Below are positions 10,823 to 20,000 of a stretch of DNA of 64,000 nucleotides, piece after piece (the stretch's first letter is position 1; the number at the start of each line of letters is the position of its first letter). This stretch comes from Bifidobacterium tibiigranuli. Lineage in GTDB: Bacteria > Actinomycetota > Actinomycetes > Actinomycetales > Bifidobacteriaceae. The notes under the pieces are model-generated. The model was not told the origin of the DNA and did not search any database. It was given only the letters and a program-made list of their open reading frames with translations. The translations under genes were made by a program, and so were the position numbers. The stretch is taken from positions 34,745 to 98,744 of the forward strand of contig NZ_JALCUA010000002.1 in NCBI RefSeq assembly GCF_022655035.1. Reading direction: 5' to 3'.

Positions 10823-12448
10823 ATGAGTGCACACCATCCGCTCGCCGTCATCATCGGCATGCCCGGAGCAGGCAAGACCCGCGTCGGGCATCAGGCCGCA
10901 TCGATGCTCGGCGTGGCATTCATCGATGCCGACCAGCGCGTTGAGGATGAGGCGCGCATGGGCATTCCGCAGTACTTCGAACGCTACGGCGAGAAGGCGT
11001 TCCGTGATTTGGAATCCTCGCTGATTCGTGAGCTGCTCGATGGCTATGACGGCCTGCTTTCCCTCGGCGGCGGCGCTCCGATGACCCCAGCTACGCGGCA
11101 GTCCCTTGTCGACTATGTTCACGGCGGCGGACGGCTGATCTACTTACAAGCCGATCCAAAGGAAGCTATGGAACGTGCGCGGCGAGGTGGCAACCGGCCG
11201 ATGCTCAAAGGCGACCCTGACGCGCGTTGGAAGCAGCTGTTCGAGGAACGAGACCCGGTGTTCTCCGAGCTGGCGAACATCCATGTGCGCACGCACGGGT
11301 CGACGCCGCAAATGGCGGCGCGGAAACTGACGGAGGCGATTATGCAACGAACAATCCATGTCACCGGCTCGTCCATCGAGCCCTACGATGTGCGCGTCGG
11401 CGAAAGCGTGATGCAGCAGCTGCCTGAGATTCTGGGGGAGCGCCCCACGAAAATCGCGCTGATTCACACCCAGCCGGTGCAGCGCCACAGCGATCATGCG
11501 CGCGCGCTGCTGCGCCGGGCGGGCTATAGCGTCTCGGACGTCGTGATACCCGATGCCGAAGCAGGCAAAACCAATCCGGTGGCCAACGACATCTGGGAGC
11601 GGCTGGGCAATGAGGGCTTCACCCGTTCCGATGCGGTTGTCGGGCTCGGCGGCGGAGCGGCCACCGATCTGGCCGGATTTGTGGCTGCGACCTGGATGCG
11701 CGGCATCCGTTACGTGAACTGCCCGACTTCGCTGCTGGCGATGGTCGACGCCTCGACTGGCGGCAAAACCGGCATCAACACGCCGCAGGGCAAGAATCTG
11801 GTCGGCTCTTTCTACACGCCGGCAGGCGTGCTCGCCGATCTCAAAACGCTGGCTACGCTTCCCAATGACATCTTCACCGAAGGACTTGGCGAGGTCGCCA
11901 AATCCGGACTCATCATGGACGAGGGCATCCTTGACCTGCTTGAGGATCACGGCGAGGAGTTGCGCGCATTCGACGGCGCACAGTTCCTTGGTTCCCCGCT
12001 CGAAGGCGTCGTCTCCGAGCTCATCGAGCGCACCGTGCGGGTCAAGGCCTACCATGTCTCCAGCGACCTCAAGGAGGCCGGGCTGCGCGAATTCCTCAAC
12101 TACGGCCACACGCTGGCCCATGCCATCGAGACGCTTGAGCACTTCCGCTGGCGGCACGGCAACGCGGTCGCGGTCGGATGCGTCTACGCGGCTGAGCTGG
12201 CTGGCCTCCTCGGCTATCTCGACAAGGACGAGGTCGATTACCACCGTTCGCTGCTCGGGTCCTTGGGGCTGCCCACGTCTTGGCATCATGAGGACTGGGA
12301 CGAAGTGCTCGCCCTGATGCATCGCGACAAGAAGGCGCGCGGCAATCACCTGCGCTTCGTGATTCTGGATGGCATCGGCCACCCGATTCACCTCGAAGAC
12401 CCGCCGCAGGACGCCGTGCACGAGGCCTTCGTGCGCATTCAGCAGTAG
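10823..12448 (+). CDS. aroB: Bifunctional shikimate kinase / 3-dehydroquinate synthase (AroK-AroB fusion)
   Basis: N-terminal GMPGAGKT...SLGGG...RPML (AroK); C-terminal [34 protein letters not shown] (AroB). Confidence 0.95.
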
Positions 12449-12460
12449 CTTTAGGGCAGT

Positions 12461-12484
12461 TTGACGGCGGGGGGGGGGTATTCT
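12461..12484 (+). promoter_or_regulatory. Putative sigma-70 promoter with a G10 homopolymer in the -35/-10 spacer
   Basis: TTGACG (12461-66), GC, G10 (12469-78), TATTCT (12479-84); 56 nt upstream of the surface-protein ATG. Confidence 0.5.
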
Positions 12485-12540
12485 TTTGCTGGGAAGGCTA
12501 CGGTGCCTCGCCATTGAGAAGCAGAAGGGAATTTCTCCAT

Positions 12541-14910
12541 ATGAGACGTTTAACGAGGGCGGCCGTCGCATTTTTGGCCGCAGTGTGCACGATGTTCGTA
12601 AGCGCTGGAGCGCTGGTGCTGAGTTCCGGTCAAGCTCAGGCTGCCGATAATACATGCGTAGTCGATCAAAGCACTATCGCCCAGTGCTTCCCGGATCCGG
12701 CGCTTGCACAGGCTGTTGCGAGTGGACTCGGAACGCACATTACAACGTCGAATATTTTGACCTCGACCGCTGTGAAATATACGACGAGTTTAAGTGTTAT
12801 TTCTGGTACGGTTTACAGCTTGAAAGGTGTTAATTCTCTTACCAATCTCAGATGGCTGTGGCTTAATGGTAGCGAAGTATCAGATCTTTCCCCTGTAAGC
12901 ACTATGACAAGTCTTGAAAGCCTAGCTTTGGAGAAGAATCAAATTTCTGATTTGTCCCCATTAAAGAATCTCACCAATCTTAGAGATCTGTGGCTGCGAT
13001 CAAATCGCATTACAGATCTTACGCCCCTAGCGGGCCTCCCCAATCTTGATAGCAACCTTGATCTTTCTGATCAATATGTATCGTTGCCGTCAGTTAGTGG
13101 CACAAAAGGCGTCGTTATACGCACCGCAAAGAATGTGGATGGCACCTATATTGCGCCTTATGCTTTGCAGCCTTCCTCTGGCGTATATGACGCGAAAACC
13201 GGTGAAGCGTCTTGGACGAATCTTACAAGTGGGAAAACCGCTTCTCTGAATGTAGATACACCGGTCACAATCGGAAGCACTAGTGCTCGCTACTCCTTAC
13301 AGATTGACCAGCCATACACGCTGTCGGCCAATGTTTCGTTCGATGCGAACGGCGGAAAGTTCGCCGACAAGTCCACGCTGCAGACCAAGGCGGCGACCGT
13401 GGGCAGTGGATATGTTTTCCCGCAAGAGCCATCGCGCCAGGGATACTCGTTCGACGGATGGTACACATCTGCCGAGGGAGGGACCCAAGTCAATTCATGG
13501 GATACCGTCCCTGATTCCTCAAGTCGCACATTATATGCGCATTGGTCGGTGAAGCCTATTGCGGTCACGTTCGATGCTAATGGCGGTGCCTTCTCGAACG
13601 GAGCATCGGCGCAGGAGAACGACATTAAGCCGGGCAGCAAATATGTGCTGCCGCCAAATCCGTCCCGTGTCGGTTACTCATTCGACGGTTGGTACACCAA
13701 GGCAGTTGGCGGAAACAAGCTCGATGGTTCTGCGACAATACCCAGCAACGTCGATTCGCAGACCTTCTACGCGCATTGGGCCGCAAATTCAGTTGTGGTC
13801 ATGTTCGACGCGAACGGCGGTGCGTTCTCGAACGGCAGCTCAAGTCAGAAGCTGAATTCGACATTCGGGAAACCGTACACATTGCCTGCGAATCCAACTC
13901 GCGCAGGCTATTCTTTCGCTGGCTGGTATACCGGCAAGGATGATTTCTGGCCTGGAAACCAGATAACAGCAGCATCCGTGGTCTCAGACGTTTCTGATCA
14001 AACGTTGTACGCCCATTGGGATGTGCAGCCAGTGAACGTATCGTTCGACGCAAACGGCGGAAAGTTCTCTGACGGCTCCGGGCTGCAGAAGCGAACCATG
14101 ACATTAAACGAGTGGTATGACTTACCCGAGAATCCCTCGCGCATTGGCTACTCCTTCAACGGCTGGTACACGGCCAAAAGCGGAGGAACGCAAGTCGATG
14201 CCTTCACCACGGTCACCGCAACTTCCAGCCGCGCCCTATACGCACAATGGACTGCGAATTCGGTCACAGTCACATTCGACACGAATGGCGGCACATTCCC
14301 CAATGGGGCCCCTACCCAGATAAACGACCAGAAATTCGGCGACGCATACTCCCTGCCCAGCAACCCGACACGGACCGGCTACACCTTTAACGGCTGGTAC
14401 ACAGCCAAAACAGGTGGCAACAAGATTACGGCATCCGCAACAATTGCTGCAGCCGGCAATCAAACGTTGTATGCACAATGGACTGAGAACAAGGCAGTGC
14501 CGGTTGCTGTGTACCGCGTTTACAACAAGAACTCTGGTCTGCATCATTACACGACGAATCTGGGTGAGAAGAATGCGTTGGTTAAGCTGGGTTGGAAGTA
14601 CGAGGGCGTGTCGTTCAACGCGGCCACGCAGGGCTCGGCTCCCGGCTTGAAGCCGGTCTATCGTGAGTACAATCCGCATGATGGGAATCACAACTGGACG
14701 CTGAACCAGGCGAAGCACAGCAAACTCGTGAGCCTGGGCTGGCATGACGAGGGCGTGGCGTGGTATGCGAACCCGGCTGGGCCGGTTACGGTCTACCGCC
14801 TGTATAATCCGCATTCGGGCGAGCACGTGTATACGACGAGTGCGAAGGAGTATGCGGTGGTTGGTGCGGCCGGCTGGCATCAGGAAGGCACCGCTTGGAA
14901 AGGCCTGTGA
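12541..14910 (+). CDS. Secreted internalin-like surface protein: signal peptide, internalin cap + LRRs, Ig-like region, five InlB B-repeats (Listeria-Bacteroides repeat), C-terminal DUF5648-like module
   Basis: Signal peptide ending AQA|ADN; cap 'IAQCFPDPALAQAV'; 22-aa LRRs (LTNLRDLWLRSNRITDLTPL); five 'V.FDANGG...P.R.GY.F.GWYT...TLYA.W' repeats; 'VYRLYNPHSGEHVYTTS..E...GW..EG.AW'. No LPXTG motif. Confidence 0.85.
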   Translation: MRRLTRAAVAFLAAVCTMFVSAGALVLSSGQAQAADNTCVVDQSTIAQCFPDPALAQAVASGLGTHITTSNILTSTAVKYTTSLSVISGTVYSLKGVNSLTNLRWLWLNGSEVSDLSPVSTMTSLESLALEKNQISDLSPLKNLTNLRDLWLRSNRITDLTPLAGLPNLDSNLDLSDQYVSLPSVSGTKGVVIRTAKNVDGTYIAPYALQPSSGVYDAKTGEASWTNLTSGKTASLNVDTPVTIGSTSARYSLQIDQPYTLSANVSFDANGGKFADKSTLQTKAATVGSGYVFPQEPSRQGYSFDGWYTSAEGGTQVNSWDTVPDSSSRTLYAHWSVKPIAVTFDANGGAFSNGASAQENDIKPGSKYVLPPNPSRVGYSFDGWYTKAVGGNKLDGSATIPSNVDSQTFYAHWAANSVVVMFDANGGAFSNGSSSQKLNSTFGKPYTLPANPTRAGYSFAGWYTGKDDFWPGNQITAASVVSDVSDQTLYAHWDVQPVNVSFDANGGKFSDGSGLQKRTMTLNEWYDLPENPSRIGYSFNGWYTAKSGGTQVDAFTTVTATSSRALYAQWTANSVTVTFDTNGGTFPNGAPTQINDQKFGDAYSLPSNPTRTGYTFNGWYTAKTGGNKITASATIAAAGNQTLYAQWTENKAVPVAVYRVYNKNSGLHHYTTNLGEKNALVKLGWKYEGVSFNAATQGSAPGLKPVYREYNPHDGNHNWTLNQAKHSKLVSLGWHDEGVAWYANPAGPVTVYRLYNPHSGEHVYTTSAKEYAVVGAAGWHQEGTAWKGL

Positions 14911-14986
14911 TAGTTTCCTGCGGGTGTGGCGTGGCATTGCGAGGTGTTGGGCTGTATGAATTGAATGCTATCGTCTGAGCTCGGAT

Positions 14987-15053
14987 ACTAATGCGAAGGC
15001 GGGTGGACTGATTCCTCGATAAGAGGAGCCAGCCCGCCCGCCTTCGCATTAGT
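14987..15053. terminator. Long hairpin (terminator or REP-like) at the left edge of the three-gene module
   Basis: Perfect 17-bp arms 14987-15003/15037-15053, extended by an imperfect inner stem closing a GATAA loop. Confidence 0.65.
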
Positions 15054-15146
15054 CTAGATACCGTACGCATCGCGCATGTCATTCAAAGTGTGAAGTAGAA
15101 TGTGAAGTGTCGGCGATGAAATACTGGATAAAGGAAGTAGGGCAAG

Positions 15147-15938
15147 ATGTCCCAGACACTATTAAAGTCTCCGCTTACACTTGTTTTGACGCGTGTCGAA
15201 TTTAATGCTGAACTGACTGCTCTTTCTGCTGAAGGATGGCCTAAGCTCGATTCTATTATGCAGTCAATTGGATTCCCTGCTGCGAATACTGTTAATGACG
15301 CCACAATTCAACTCACTCCTGCGGGGCCTATGCAGGTATCTCAAGGTAGTCGCCGTGTCTATCAGGATGCAAATGGCGGATTGCGTGTTTCCGTGGCTCC
15401 GCAATTTATCGCGCTATATGCCGGACGTGTGAACGATGTAATTGCCTATGAAGACCACGAAGCCTTTCTTAGCAAGTTTCGGGAGATTATTACGGCACTG
15501 ATGCCAATTGTGGGCGAAATGCCTGTGACGAGAACCGGGTATCGCTACGTGGATCAGCTGATCGGCGAGGATTTTACGCAAGTGGATAAGTTGCTGCGTC
15601 CTGCATGCAGGGGCGTATTGCCGTCCGAGGTTCCCCAAGGTGCTCAACTGCTTGCATCGGCTTTGCGTGCGCAGTTTTCTTATACCAATTCAGATAATGT
15701 TCAGCCTGACGTGCTTCAGATGCAAAGCGGCCAGATTCCCAAAGGCCAGCCGATTGACCCAGGCGTGCCGGTTCTTGACCAAGATTCGTGGGTTTTGGAT
15801 ATTGATACATCGGCCTTTGCTCCGGTAGCTTTTACAGCCGATGTGGTTATAGCAACTGCGTCTCGGCTGCAGCAGCGAGCTAGGGAATTTTTTGAGAATA
15901 CTGCAGTTACTGATGAATTCGAGCGTCGATTCCGCTGA
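15147..15938 (+). CDS. TIGR04255-family protein (function unknown)
   Basis: 263 aa with the family pattern 'SPL..V...VEF', 'VTRTGYRYVDQL', 'VLDIDTS', 'REFFE..VTDEF..RF'. Confidence 0.8.
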   Translation: MSQTLLKSPLTLVLTRVEFNAELTALSAEGWPKLDSIMQSIGFPAANTVNDATIQLTPAGPMQVSQGSRRVYQDANGGLRVSVAPQFIALYAGRVNDVIAYEDHEAFLSKFREIITALMPIVGEMPVTRTGYRYVDQLIGEDFTQVDKLLRPACRGVLPSEVPQGAQLLASALRAQFSYTNSDNVQPDVLQMQSGQIPKGQPIDPGVPVLDQDSWVLDIDTSAFAPVAFTADVVIATASRLQQRAREFFENTAVTDEFERRFR

Positions 15939-16026
15939 TATTTTCGTTGTGCAGTTGGGTGGTGTCTGGTCAAGATTCGAGAAAAGTCTCTAGTCAATTA
16001 CGCGACGTACCCTAAACCATGAGAGA

Positions 16027-16674
16027 GTGATAGTTATGGAACAACTTGTGCAGAGACGCATCGGCTCAACAACAACGGCTGCTGTACTTGTTTTTGGACT
16101 CATGGCACCTGCCGTTTCACCTATATGGAGTGATTGGTCACTAAACGGCGGACTGCCATTTGCACAGCAGAGCACCGCGTATTTTGACAGTTTTTTTGCG
16201 GAACCGGGCAGTTCGACTGTTACTGCTGCCCTTCCAGGCATACCGACATTGAGACAAGTGACAGCTCAACTTGTTGATTCTCGCAGTCGTTCGTCGGACT
16301 CAGCCGATGAGGACGATTCGCCGAATACCGGTGCCTTGATTCGCGAAGTGCAGGAACGTTCGGGGCTTACAGGTCAGCAGTTAGCTAAGGTGCTGGGCGT
16401 TTCCCGCCGCACGCTGTATCTATGGGCGAACGGAGGAACGATGAGTGCGGCGCATAGCGAGTCGCTTGCTAAATTCGATGCTCTTGTTCGTGAATATGAT
16501 GCCGAAGATCCATCCGCCACGAGATTGGCCCTGCTGAGGTCAGATGTCGATGGTTTGAGTGCATTCGATCGCTTCCGTGTTGAGCGCGATGCCGCTTCTC
16601 CTGAAATTACCGATTTCCTGTTGTCCGCATCCAAGCTTCTCGCTCCCAATATCCCTGACGCACAAACGGTATAG
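16027..16674 (+). CDS. XRE-type HTH protein with a ~100-aa N-terminal extension (antitoxin-like)
   Basis: 'LIREVQERSGLTGQQLAKVLGVSRRTLYLWANG' is a classic XRE HTH. Start may be the GTG at 16027 or the ATG three codons later (MEQL). Confidence 0.75.
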   Translation: MIVMEQLVQRRIGSTTTAAVLVFGLMAPAVSPIWSDWSLNGGLPFAQQSTAYFDSFFAEPGSSTVTAALPGIPTLRQVTAQLVDSRSRSSDSADEDDSPNTGALIREVQERSGLTGQQLAKVLGVSRRTLYLWANGGTMSAAHSESLAKFDALVREYDAEDPSATRLALLRSDVDGLSAFDRFRVERDAASPEITDFLLSASKLLAPNIPDAQTV

Positions 16675-16691
16675 CTTCGAAAGACGATGAT

Positions 16692-17615
16692 ATGACAAGC
16701 CCCTACTCCATGCCGCTGCGACAAGGTGATGTGCTCGCGACACTGAACCAGATTCCTGAATTTACAGGAATCGACAGGATGGTTGAGTGGCAGACTGCTC
16801 CTCTGGGCCTCGTCGTAGTTTCGCAAACATGTGATGCGATACGTGACTCGTGCATTCAAGTTGCACCAATCGTTGAACTCGAAGGAGATTTGGCGCGGCA
16901 GGCACAGGTCGGACGGCGACCACGGTACGCCCCTCTTGCCGAGAATAGTGAAAACTCGAAGTTCGCTGACCTTAGCCATATCATGACCATTAATCGTGGC
17001 CAAGTAGTGACGGCAGAAGACGGTACTCCTTCTCCGGAGGGGCTTGTTAGTGTTGCCGCGGAAAAGCTTTTCCGCAATTTTGTAGGACGTCGCTTCGCAA
17101 GGTTCCCTTTTCCCGATGAGGTAACGGACTGGTGCAGGCCGTTGACCGACAAAGTTGCGCCAAAAGCTAGACACGCGGATACCAAACCTGAAGGTGCTCG
17201 GCTTGATGAGATTAAAGAGATACGGGTTGCCGCGTCTAGCGGATGGTCGCAACCACCATTTCATTTGCAGCTCGATTTCCTTGTTGAGCCGGGCATCCTT
17301 CCGGAGCCGGATCGAGATCTCGCAAATGCTGAGCGGGAAAGGCTGCTGAGCATGCCAGCTTCCTCTCTTGCTGCTGAGATTGATGCGTTGAGGCATAACG
17401 CTGACGAAGGCGCAGCTACAATGCGGGCGTTCGCGTGGAACCAACTTATTACTTGCTGGGTGGAGAGTTGCAATGGCAAGTACAGCCAAGAGCGGAACAA
17501 TGGAGTTCAAGTTCATGGGGACGGTCGGCTGTGGGATCTAGATGACTACCCATATTCACAAGCATTGCGTTCGGAACGCCTCGACTTGGATTATCTGAGT
17601 CGTTCCGGCGAATAG
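16692..17615 (+). CDS. Hypothetical protein with an N-terminal MazF/PemK-like barrel and an unknown C-terminal domain
   Basis: 'LRQGDVL...LVVVSQTCD...IQVAPIV...FADLSHIMTI' follows the MazF GD / VVxS / V.P spacing. 17 nt gap after the previous gene. Confidence 0.55.
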   Translation: MTSPYSMPLRQGDVLATLNQIPEFTGIDRMVEWQTAPLGLVVVSQTCDAIRDSCIQVAPIVELEGDLARQAQVGRRPRYAPLAENSENSKFADLSHIMTINRGQVVTAEDGTPSPEGLVSVAAEKLFRNFVGRRFARFPFPDEVTDWCRPLTDKVAPKARHADTKPEGARLDEIKEIRVAASSGWSQPPFHLQLDFLVEPGILPEPDRDLANAERERLLSMPASSLAAEIDALRHNADEGAATMRAFAWNQLITCWVESCNGKYSQERNNGVQVHGDGRLWDLDDYPYSQALRSERLDLDYLSRSGE

Positions 17616-17742
17616 CGCGACTTGGGTTTGCACTCTATCACCTCGGGTATTTGCGAGGCTGTAAATTGTAACGGTTTGGACCTTCTGTGTTGGTTTATGC
17701 GCAGCGTTGCGGATACGTTGGGGTAACAGCAAATCATGCAGC

Positions 17743-17818
17743 AAGCAATTCCCGCACTGACCTTGCTATCATGCGGGGAATGTGATGGTTGACTGGCTTG
17801 AAATGACGCAATTCCCGC
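17743..17818. repeat. Second copy of the TCCCGCA/TGCGGG REP-like hairpin family
   Basis: AAGCAATTCCCGCAC-N10-ATCATGCGGG has the same arms and spacer length as 2153-2187; a further GCAATTCCCGC half-arm at about 17808-17818. Confidence 0.7.
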
Positions 17819-17922
17819 GCAGGGCCTGAGCAGTCTCAAGGGGCATCGCAGCACCTCCGATGGGCTGTTTTCCTGCTTGCTGATGCTGCGGTGCTCCCGC
17901 GATGCCCAGTGCCCAGCGCGAT

Positions 17923-18990
17923 TCAGCTATGGTCTTTCTGTCGCTGTCGGCTCCGCTGCCGACGCCACTGGACGATTACCGAGGCCAGTGACGCTATATT
18001 CGCAGCAAGCAGAGCAAAGCCGAAGCTGTTGGAAAATGCGCCATGGCCCATATATCCGAGCCAGAGTGCGGTGACATAGACAATGTCGACCAGCACGATG
18101 GCACCATACAGCCACACACGGCTCAGCTCTTTATGCGGGGAGCGCGGGAAGCGCTGCGCATATACCTCGGCAGGGCCGAATTCCTCCACCAGTTTTGATT
18201 CCGATTGCGCCGCATATTGTCGGGCGTCAGTGCAGATCTGCCTGACACGCCGTGTGGATATGTCGCCGCGCGACTGCAACGCTCCGGCAAGGTCTGAAAG
18301 CCACGCTTCATCATCGGCAAACAGGTCGTCGGCCGACAGGCCGGAAAGCTCAGGCTCCGGCGGCCATAGCCTTCCGGTAATCCACGTCACGAGGGCATAC
18401 ACCGCCGCCGCAGGCAGCATGATGAGCCACATTGCCACCCGTGCCATCGGAATTTGCTGAATAAGCCACGCATATCCCGCAGTCGCACAAGTGCCGATTA
18501 CAACAAGAACGGCGCATGACAGCACTGCCGCCGGCATAGGTCTGGTCTGAATGACACGCTGATATATGCCCATGCATCCAACGATTATCCAGGATATCAG
18601 CAGCGGCATGGCAGCGATGGCTACAGGCAGCCTGTCACTCCCTTCGATGCAGAACATCACGGATAACACGCTTGCCGAGGCAAAGCCCACGAGGACTAAA
18701 TCACGTACTGGGAGCACTTGCGTTTGGAAGGCGTCAATCCCCATTTCCCGCCATTGCCGAACCTGTTCATCCGCCCATTCCTGCGGTTCCCCGAATAATT
18801 CGGCTATCGCTTCGTCGGATTCAGCCAGAGTCTCCGGAACGCCATCGAAAGCGAGGCGCGCATGATGAACGTCAACATGGTCATCGATGAAAGCGAGAAC
18901 GGCTCTGGCAAACCATTTCGTATCTTCCGCACGCCCTCGTACGGCAGCGAACCGCTCTTCCACATCATTCAATGGTTGATTGCCAGCCAT
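17923..18990 (-). CDS. Membrane protein with two HAAS/DUF1700-like helical domains
   Basis: Two repeats 'W...L...l...E....ELFGEP.EWA' and 'WLSDL...L..RG......EEFGPAEVYA', each followed by TM helices; start overlaps the padR stop. Confidence 0.65.
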   Translation of the reverse strand: MAGNQPLNDVEERFAAVRGRAEDTKWFARAVLAFIDDHVDVHHARLAFDGVPETLAESDEAIAELFGEPQEWADEQVRQWREMGIDAFQTQVLPVRDLVLVGFASASVLSVMFCIEGSDRLPVAIAAMPLLISWIIVGCMGIYQRVIQTRPMPAAVLSCAVLVVIGTCATAGYAWLIQQIPMARVAMWLIMLPAAAVYALVTWITGRLWPPEPELSGLSADDLFADDEAWLSDLAGALQSRGDISTRRVRQICTDARQYAAQSESKLVEEFGPAEVYAQRFPRSPHKELSRVWLYGAIVLVDIVYVTALWLGYMGHGAFSNSFGFALLAANIASLASVIVQWRRQRSRQRQKDHS

Positions 18991-19388
18991 GATGCCTCGT
19001 CCTTCCCCGCAGTATCCACGGCTTCCTCCGCACCGGGACCAGCGTGCAGCGCCGCAGCTAGTGCGCTCCACTGCTTCCGTTCGTCACGCAGGCGACTTTG
19101 CCCTGCATCCGTGAGCGCATATACCTTTCGGCCCGGTCCGGAGCTGGCTTCCTCCCATTGGGAGGTGAGCCAGCCGCCTTCGGTCAACTCATCGAGGATC
19201 GGATACAGCGAGCCTCCTTTGGGCCTTCCGAAACCGTTGGCTTCCAACGCCAACACGATGCCATAGCCGTGCAGGGGCTCGTGCTCCACGGTTTGCAGAA
19301 TCGCAGTGCGCATTGCTGCGCGAATCCATAATGCGGGCCAGCGGGCGGCGTCAGCAGTGTGACGAGCCGACTTATTAGTTTCGAACAT
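18969..19388 (-). CDS. PadR-family transcriptional regulator
   Basis: 'HGYGI...GSLYPILDELTEGGWLTSQW...GPGRKVYALTDAG'. Confidence 0.92.
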   Translation of the reverse strand: MFETNKSARHTADAARWPALWIRAAMRTAILQTVEHEPLHGYGIVLALEANGFGRPKGGSLYPILDELTEGGWLTSQWEEASSGPGRKVYALTDAGQSRLRDERKQWSALAAALHAGPGAEEAVDTAGKDEASWLAINH

Positions 19389-19416
19389 ATATCTAAGTAT
19401 ATCATATATCTAGATA
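19386..19416. promoter_or_regulatory. Candidate PadR operator / AT-rich divergent promoter
   Basis: CATATATCTA repeated at 19386 and 19403; palindrome TATCTAGATA at 19407-19416, right at the padR start. Confidence 0.5.
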
Positions 19417-19532
19417 GTTAAATTGTATATGGCAGCAAATTACCGCGTCATTGGTACTAGGGGATTAGGTTTTATATGATAAGTCCGGCAGAGAACATTC
19501 AGCACAACTTTTGGAGAAGGAAGACAGCAGTC

Positions 19533-20000
19533 ATGGAAGCAACGCACAAGGGCACCCGCAACGTCATCGTCGTCAATGGACCGAATCTGGGGCGCTTGGG
19601 CGTGCGCGAGCCCGACGTCTATGGCAGTGACGACCTGGCCGCGCTGACCAGGCTGTGCGAAGGCTGGGGCAGCGAGCTCGGCCTGCATGTCGAAGTGCGC
19701 CAGAGCGACGACGAAGCCGAGATGATCGGCTGGATGCATCGCGCCGTCGACGAGCAGACACCGGTGGTGATGAACCCGGCGGCCTTCACTCATTACAGCT
19801 ATGGCCTGTCCGACGCCGCCCACATGGTTACGGACGCGGGATTGCCGCTTATGGAGGTCCACATCTCCAATCCCTCGGCGCGTGATTCCTTCCGCAAGTA
19901 CAGCGTGATTTCACCGGTGGCCACCGGCACCATCACCGGCATGGGCTTCTACGGCTACCGGCTGGCCCTGGAGGCGGTTGCCCACCTCCTTGGTGCGTAA
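19533..20000 (+). CDS. aroQ: Type II 3-dehydroquinate dehydratase
   Basis: VVNGPNLGRLGVREPDVYG, NPAAFTHYS, EVHISN, G.GFYGY.LAL. Confidence 0.96.
   Translation: MEATHKGTRNVIVVNGPNLGRLGVREPDVYGSDDLAALTRLCEGWGSELGLHVEVRQSDDEAEMIGWMHRAVDEQTPVVMNPAAFTHYSYGLSDAAHMVTDAGLPLMEVHISNPSARDSFRKYSVISPVATGTITGMGFYGYRLALEAVAHLLGA

Follow-up and report, generated by a model that had tools for sequence, protein, structure and literature searches.

A conserved TIGR04255, MbcA-like and MazF-fold gene trio in Bifidobacterium tibiigranuli as a candidate three-component toxin-antitoxin or abortive-infection-type module

The window analysed here, 64,000 nucleotides (nt) of the Bifidobacterium tibiigranuli contig NZ_JALCUA010000002.1 (positions 34,745 to 98,744), carries three co-oriented genes, here called gene 1, gene 2 and gene 3, which encode a TIGR04255 protein, an Xre/MbcA-like protein and a protein with a MazF-fold N-terminal domain. 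We consider this trio to be a horizontally mobile, self-contained operon, most likely a three-component toxin-antitoxin or abortive-infection-type module, with a probability of about 0.55. The trio is widespread and apparently undescribed, and it contains two uncharacterised protein families. An earlier note, made from the letters of the window alone, had described three co-oriented genes of 263, 215 and 307 amino acids (aa), and the open reading frames (ORFs) match that description. Conservation was assessed in a set of loci, 80 of which were collected via gene-3 relatives and 7 via exact proteins, and whose ORFs were searched with the three window proteins. All three homologues were adjacent, in equal order and on the same strand, in 83 of the 87 loci, which bears out the co-occurrence of the trio; each of the four exceptional loci either lay at a contig end or was at the edge of what a single-sequence search can detect. 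The trio was found in at least eight phyla overall, in Actinomycetota, Cyanobacteria, Myxococcota, Planctomycetota, Acidobacteriota, Binatia, Rokubacteria, Alpha-, Beta- and Gammaproteobacteria and one flavobacterium (Flavobacteriaceae), and it is present in culturable Streptomyces, Nocardia, Mycobacterium simulans, Microcystis and Roseibium. In 57 of 80 loci, a 4-nt overlap joins the stop codon of gene 1 to the start of gene 2, and the genes are mostly translationally coupled. When the window was compared with its 92%-identical relative L167, the ratio of nonsynonymous to synonymous substitution rates (dN/dS) was 0.23 for gene 1, 0.23 for gene 2 and 0.20 for gene 3, and these values of about 0.2 indicate that all three genes are under purifying selection. 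A word-indexed search with gene 3 returned 56 homologues, none of which carries a name, while an exhaustive search returned 2,526 clusters at 50% identity with E ≤ 1e-3 (1,363 with E ≤ 1e-10 and 798 with E ≤ 1e-30).

The protein encoded by gene 2 is composed of a variable, semi-hydrophobic N-terminal extension (residues ~1-100), an Xre-type helix-turn-helix (HTH) domain (~102-151) and an MbcA-like C-terminal region. The HTH that had been read from the sequence is found at residues 102-151 and scores just under the Pfam cut-offs (26.6 versus 27 bits for HTH_31 and 25.7 versus 25.8 bits for Xre-like-HTH, PF20432); the match to NF049845 has an E-value of 4e-4. A profile of 77 gene-2 homologues aligned to residues 20-108 of the 115-residue chain of Mycobacterium tuberculosis MbcA (6fkg_C) with E 1.8e-5, and this alignment spans both the HTH-like and the toxin-binding parts. 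Judged by these profile matches, gene 2 is a homologue of the antitoxins of the Xre/MbcA/ParS class, in agreement with the antitoxin-like character previously ascribed to it. The first ~100 residues are fast-evolving and poorly conserved and contain short TSxxG, GT and TxxG motifs together with the semi-hydrophobic stretch. A membrane anchor in this extension was considered and was rejected as a general feature, transmembrane-like hydropathy being present in 16 of 81 homologues.

Gene 3 encodes a MazF/PemK-fold domain (residues ~1-136), a linker containing R133, R137, P141 and D142, a C-terminal alpha/beta domain and a conserved acidic tail (SExLDLDxLS). Neither the single protein nor the family matched anything in Pfam, NCBIfam, PADLOC, PHROGs or the sequences of the Protein Data Bank (PDB). 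An AlphaFold2 model based on 55 sequences reached a predicted local distance difference test score (pLDDT) of 87.4 and a predicted template modelling score (pTM) of 0.73. The best 50 PDB matches to this model were all of the MazF type (MazF, YdcE, MoxT and mycobacterial MazFs), with E 0.009-0.1, probability 0.87-1.00 and a template modelling (TM) score by target of 0.47-0.65 over ~130 columns, and ranks 2-7 in BFVD were PemK-like phage proteins. In addition, hhalign against a profile of 23 actinobacterial PemK proteins aligned gene 3 collinearly over the whole MazF domain (P 5e-4), including the N-terminal GD motif and the C-terminal 'D-x-I-x-T-V-D/K' strand. The RNase site of MazF consists of a catalytic Arg in an RP motif and a Thr/Ser in a PxT motif. 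In the hhalign alignment, the RP and PxT positions correspond to G39/L40 and P59-I60-V61 of gene 3, so the catalytic Arg and Thr are not conserved, and a conserved Q45-T46-C47-D48 (Q-T-C-D) stands instead of these residues. Q45, C47, D48, R137, P141, R178 and D298 are invariant in the gene-3 family, and Q11-G12-D13, T46, D93-L94 and W185 are nearly so. Residues ~140-307 were confidently modelled as the alpha/beta domain. These results indicate that the description of gene 3 as MazF-like holds for the fold of its N-terminal domain, on the PDB, BFVD and hhalign comparisons, and does not extend to the PemK_toxin profile PF02452 or to the catalytic Arg and Thr. When the genome of the window was searched with PF02452, two other genes were detected and gene 3 was not; MazF-shaped gene 3 is additional to the ordinary MazF toxins of the genome. 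The two canonical PemK/MazF genes (G000:C5:111550-111864 and G000:C7:83968-84282) score about 90 bits to PF02452.

Gene 1 matched TIGR04255 with 65.9 bits, against an NCBIfam cut-off of 30, over model positions 4-252 of 252, confirming the family assignment over the full length of the model; all 86 gene-1 homologues from trio loci matched it as well, and a search of gene 1 in Pfam gave no match. A literature search on TIGR04255 found no paper. An AlphaFold2 model built on these 86 homologues had a pLDDT of 95 and a pTM of 0.90, and it consists of two like halves, beta-alpha-beta4-alpha followed by beta-(alpha)-beta3-alpha, that is, a duplicated alpha/beta fold. Foldseek comparison with the PDB gave weak matches, AdoMetDC/prozyme being the best (E 2e-4), along with TBP, phage S-adenosylmethionine (SAM) lyase and PII; with TM scores of 0.2-0.4 and a large root-mean-square deviation, these proteins have only topology in common with gene 1. 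SecB was not found among the 50 PDB matches listed for the model. The earlier note had suggested that gene 1 could act as the chaperone or phage sensor of a TAC-like system and had asked whether it resembles SecB or a duplicated alpha/beta sheet; the idea of a SecB-like chaperone was rejected on fold. Residues R133, D218 and D220 are invariant in the gene-1 family, and Y101, R129, G131, Y134, G156, G195 and W215 are near-invariant.

About half of the TIGR04255 genes in the Actinomycetota sample head a gene 1-2-3 trio, and the rest follow three patterns, termed B, C and D. In pattern B, gene-1 and gene-2 homologues are followed by a different third gene of 177-250 aa with 'GDV...HxCxLR'; these HxC third genes (L130-L132) aligned to gene 3 with an hhalign probability of 55% (P 1e-4). 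In pattern C, gene 1 is followed by two unrelated small genes. In pattern D, it is followed by a short form of gene 3 of 180-196 aa with 'QGD...SQxCD...RFxxxxxRxGLP', and these short forms (L126, L128 and L134) aligned to gene 3 with a probability of 93%. No significant similarity to gene 3 was detected by hhalign for the third gene of L133. The downstream partners in patterns B, C and D had no Pfam or NCBIfam match. A MazF-like module that keeps a conserved Cys thus recurs as a partner of TIGR04255, and gene 3 has gained its C-terminal domain as an addition peculiar to this branch. Across the wider MazF-like superfamily behind TIGR04255, one Cys is kept in the motif variants QTCD, QDCD, QSCD, HPCA and HACS. 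Further tightly coupled cassettes were seen, in which TIGR04255 is followed by proteins of ~162 and ~145-152 aa (L120, L123 and L124) or of 186 and 127 aa (L119), and also in L127 and L129. The downstream proteins of these cassettes had no Pfam or NCBIfam match, and the third genes of L119 and L123 had no significant PDB sequence match. By eye, the third gene of L119 appeared HEPN-like (RNxxxY) and those of L120, L123 and L124 ART-like (LYRS...YLSSQ); with no support from Pfam, NCBIfam or the PDB, neither assignment is claimed.

TIGR04255 was present in 26 of 401 sampled Actinomycetota genomes (about 6%), a sporadic distribution. Gene 3 was found in 2 of 61 related genomes, the second copy being 33% identical, and the distribution of the trio is sporadic. 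The surroundings of the trio, given here as raw counts, were scanned in 82 loci through the 141 genes that flank it most closely. No conserved fourth gene was present among them, which, together with the variety of the neighbours, indicates that the module is self-contained and mobile. PADLOC matches in these neighbours were PDC-S01 (two), Pycsar cyclase (two), phospholipase effectors (at least two), DISARM methylase, type I and type IIG restriction-modification, DRT reverse transcriptase, GajB and PDC-M03B, and strong matches occurred in roughly ten of the 141; the Pfam matches were integrases (three) and many housekeeping genes. On the metagenome contig L007 (L007:1-12846), the trio is found in a dense defence island containing an SLFN-group helicase, a MazG-like gene, a DEAD/MZB helicase, UDG, a DUF1016/YhcG nuclease, DarT with Macro (DarG-like) and SIR2_2. 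Elsewhere its neighbours are AbiEi and a transposase (L005), an Mrr-type nuclease and Lsr2 (L004) or type I restriction-modification (L171), and in L001 a prophage-type endolysin and one more small gene precede it by about 480 nt. Some copies thus lie in defence islands, a linkage that the first reading had proposed to look for, or beside restriction-modification, AbiE or a prophage lysis module, but most neighbours are not defence genes, and we regard the association as suggestive. The trio of the window, like that of L167-L170, is located directly 3' of a gene of the LRR/Flg_new/DUF5648 surface-protein type with differing outer flanks, and the surface-protein gene and the trio may move as one unit. 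L167-L170 (L167:3829-8909) are metagenome contigs whose trio proteins are 87-92% identical to those of the window, and their outer flanks hold GH25-DUF5648 lysozyme-like genes and an ISL3 transposase.

The trio is part of a low-GC insertion (Table 1). In all 13 congeneric genomes compared, aroKB was directly beside aroQ, and pyrG was also downstream in 10 of these; this contiguity identifies the ~7 kb between the two aro genes of the window as an insertion, as the earlier note had supposed. Besides the trio, the insertion contains the LRR/Flg_new/DUF5648 surface-protein gene and, both on the minus strand, a gene for a 382-aa membrane protein and PadR. The GC content of the trio, 0.48-0.54, is below that of the flanking aroKB and pyrG, 0.62-0.65, which agrees with the lower GC reported before. 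The nearest homologue of gene 3, P0001 (92%), uses the start codon equivalent to the alternative ATG in Table 1. Long antisense ORFs in high-GC coding sequence are commonly spurious, and a 503-aa ORF on the minus strand at 11144-12655, antisense to aroKB, is unlikely to be a gene.

Table 1 Coordinates in the window of the trio, the insertion that contains it and the associated hairpins and repeats
Feature	Position	Strand	Description
Flank of insertion, aroKB	10823-12448		
Insertion	12449-19475		~7 kb, low GC; based on congener synteny and GC profile
Long hairpin, perfect type	14987-15053	+	31-nt arms, 87% complementary; after stop of surface-protein gene
Direct repeat	15088-15108	+	21 nt, GTGTGAAGT-AGA-ATGTGAAGT, contains TAGAAT; upstream of gene 1
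Gene 1	15147-15938	+	263 aa; from ORF list
Gene 2	16027-16674	+	215 aa; alternative ATG at 16036 gives 212 aa
Gene 3	16692-17615	+	307 aa; alternative ATG at 16710 gives about 301-302 aa
Small dispersed hairpin repeat	17745-17790	+	GCAATTCCCGCAC...ATCATGCGGGGAAT; 3' of gene 3
Flank of insertion, aroQ	19476-20000		

The long hairpin upstream of the trio, noted in the first reading of the sequence, is real. Its RNA fold has an energy of -54 kcal/mol (z = -9.5), which was equalled in 0 of 200 shuffles, and the hairpin is kept in L167; it is probably a terminator or insulator upstream of the trio. The direct repeat upstream of gene 1 is likewise kept in L167, and also in L001, whose upstream region has otherwise diverged. 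It is single-copy in the window, where the number of expected chance matches is 0, and it is a candidate -10 region or promoter and/or an operator for the gene-2 HTH. The element 3' of gene 3, previously called REP-like and placed at 17743-17818, folded no better than shuffles (z = -0.65), but its core hairpin is repeated in the window. A second copy of this core, GCAATTCCCGCAC...ATCATGCGGG, at about 2140-2200 indicates that the downstream element is a small dispersed repeat. The repeat core reads GCAATTCCCGCAC ... ATCATGCGGGAATTGTGA, and a partial copy at 17808-17820 accompanies the two copies.

The trio was compared with known systems. In PADLOC-DB v2.0.0, genes 1 and 3 had no match and gene 2 had two weak HTH matches alone, so that the trio is unlisted there, as had been presumed, and it is not described in the HicA paper of Gerdes (2024). 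Toxin-antitoxin-chaperone (TAC) systems, such as HigB1-HigA1-SecB(TA) of M. tuberculosis and CmdTAC of Escherichia coli, are associated with abortive phage defence. They share with the trio, in outline, a set of three co-transcribed genes (putatively so in the trio), an antitoxin with a poorly conserved extension and a strictly linked third protein that is neither toxin nor antitoxin. On the other hand, the place of SecB is taken by TIGR04255 with its duplicated alpha/beta fold, gene 2 carries its extension at the N-terminus (residues 1 to about 100) whereas the TAC antitoxin has a C-terminal chaperone-addiction (ChAD) tail, the order is accessory-antitoxin-toxin, and the putative toxin is MazF-shaped, not HigB, HicA, MqsR or CmdT. 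The TAC analogy drawn in the earlier note was not upheld on the first three of these counts. MbcTA (Rv1989c/Rv1990c) and ParST resemble the trio in that the gene-2 profile aligns to MbcA and the antitoxin gene precedes the putative toxin gene; they differ in that no RES domain match was found in genes 1 or 3 and in that the trio has the ~100-aa N-terminal extension on gene 2 and the extra upstream TIGR04255 gene. Gene 3 has, in its N-terminal ~130 residues, the fold of MazF/PemK/Kid and CcdB, in line with the collinear profile alignment. Unlike MazF/PemK/Kid, gene 3 is missed by PF02452, has the invariant Q-T-C-D motif in place of the catalytic Arg and Thr, is 2.5 times longer owing to its extra C-terminal domain, and has a partner that is MbcA-like and not MazE or PemI. 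A precedent for a divergent MazF-like domain recruited into a multi-gene anti-phage system is GajC of type II Gabija, a divergent split MazF-like domain with a helical insertion that is presumed to be the effector with the GajB helicase (NAR 2026, PMC13069673). GajC has no TIGR04255 or MbcA-like partner (PMC13069673).

In a three-component toxin-antitoxin or abortive-infection-type module, gene 3 would be a growth-arresting effector, acting probably on nucleic acid by a chemistry other than that of MazF, and it would be neutralised by the MbcA-like C-terminal half of gene 2. Acting at the conserved repeat that precedes gene 1, the gene-2 HTH may autoregulate the operon. Through its N-terminal extension, gene 2 would tether the gene 2/gene 3 pair to the TIGR04255 protein, a constant 'hub' that may stabilise the antitoxin or sense a trigger such as phage infection and would thereby decide the timing of toxin release. 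A broader proposal, which we advance tentatively and at rather less than even odds, is that TIGR04255 is the constant hub of a large unrecognised tripartite toxin-antitoxin/abortive-infection class, in which a bipartite middle protein links the hub to exchangeable toxins, its N-terminal extension binding the hub and its C-terminal part being the cognate antitoxin. The toxins of the branch described here would then form a new MazF-fold family, about 2,500 clusters in size, with an invariant Cys-containing Q-T-C-D site and a chemistry unlike that of the MazF RNase.

Several observations weigh against reading the trio as a three-component toxin-antitoxin or abortive-infection-type module. Gene 3 had no Pfam match to PF02452 at E ≤ 0.1 and none of 55 family members had one at E ≤ 0.05, the Foldseek E-values were about 0.01 with none ≤ 0.001, and the hhalign probability against PemK was just 27-31%. 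Since the catalytic residues of MazF are not conserved, RNase activity is not implied, and the C-terminal ~170 aa of gene 3, searched within the whole protein, had no fold or profile match. To our knowledge, the known MbcA-class antitoxins pair with RES toxins and not with MazF-like ones. In the clade of the window, the trio genes do not overlap but are separated by 88 nt between genes 1 and 2 and 17 nt between genes 2 and 3. Gene 1 of this clade also has non-consensus residues at about ten positions that the family conserves; the replacements are consistent in six sequences, suggesting a diverged but constrained sub-branch and not decay. In addition, the many conserved polar residues of gene 1 and its weak likeness to small-molecule enzymes in the structural model raise the possibility that it may be an enzyme or a ligand sensor and not a passive chaperone. 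Finally, the genes next to the trio are mostly ordinary ones, and its link to defence islands, being drawn from raw counts, is anecdotal.

The possibility that gene 1 is an enzyme or small-molecule sensor leads to a different view of the module, in which genes 2 and 3 are an ordinary type II toxin-antitoxin pair and gene 1, acting for example on SAM, polyamine or nucleotide-like ligands, would produce, break down or read out a signal, so that control would be exerted by a signal and not by a chaperone. The fold matches to AdoMetDC/prozyme, TBP-like proteins, phage SAM lyase and PII, the invariant or nearly invariant polar residues R133, D218, D220, Y101, R129 and Y134, and the position of TIGR04255 as the most conserved part of otherwise variable cassettes are consistent with this. 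We consider it unlikely, as the resemblance to those enzymes is confined to topology, no catalytic motif of the AdoMetDC, TBP, SAM lyase or PII families was identified in gene 1, and several of its conserved polar residues are replaced in the clade of the window.

A role apart from phage defence is also conceivable, the trio serving the mobile island that carries it, together with the surface protein, as a regulator or as a cassette for addiction or stabilisation. Such a role would account for the surface-protein gene that lies directly upstream in the window and in L167-L170 despite differing outer flanks, for the integrases and transposases near the trio in several loci, and for the fact that most neighbours are not defence genes. 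The surface-protein linkage is, however, confined to close bifidobacterial relatives, the neighbours vary across 80 other loci and several copies are among bona fide defence genes, and we judge this role distinctly improbable. Gene 3 could, moreover, be no toxin at all, its MazF/CcdB-like barrel serving as a binding or adaptor domain in a non-toxic regulatory complex. That it lacks the catalytic Arg and Thr of MazF and a PF02452 match, and that, besides a large additional domain, it has an acidic tail at its C-terminus that could fill its own groove, would fit this idea. The MbcA-type antitoxin homologue immediately upstream, the toxin-like features of the protein (invariant Q45/C47/D48 and R137/R178/D298), the sporadic, mobile occurrence and the exchange of third genes behind TIGR04255 all argue against it, and we hold it to be very doubtful.

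If the trio is a three-component toxin-antitoxin or abortive-infection-type module with TIGR04255 as its hub, TIGR04255, a family of no assigned function present in about 6% of the sampled Actinomycetota genomes, would gain a role. The ~2,500-cluster family of gene 3, for which neither Pfam nor NCBIfam has a model, would stand as a new branch of the MazF/CcdB toxin fold that differs in its active site, and the module would represent a third tripartite toxin-antitoxin design beside those with SecB-type chaperones and those of the retron or kinase types. Since the module is just 2.5 kb, self-contained and present in culturable genera, it is directly testable.

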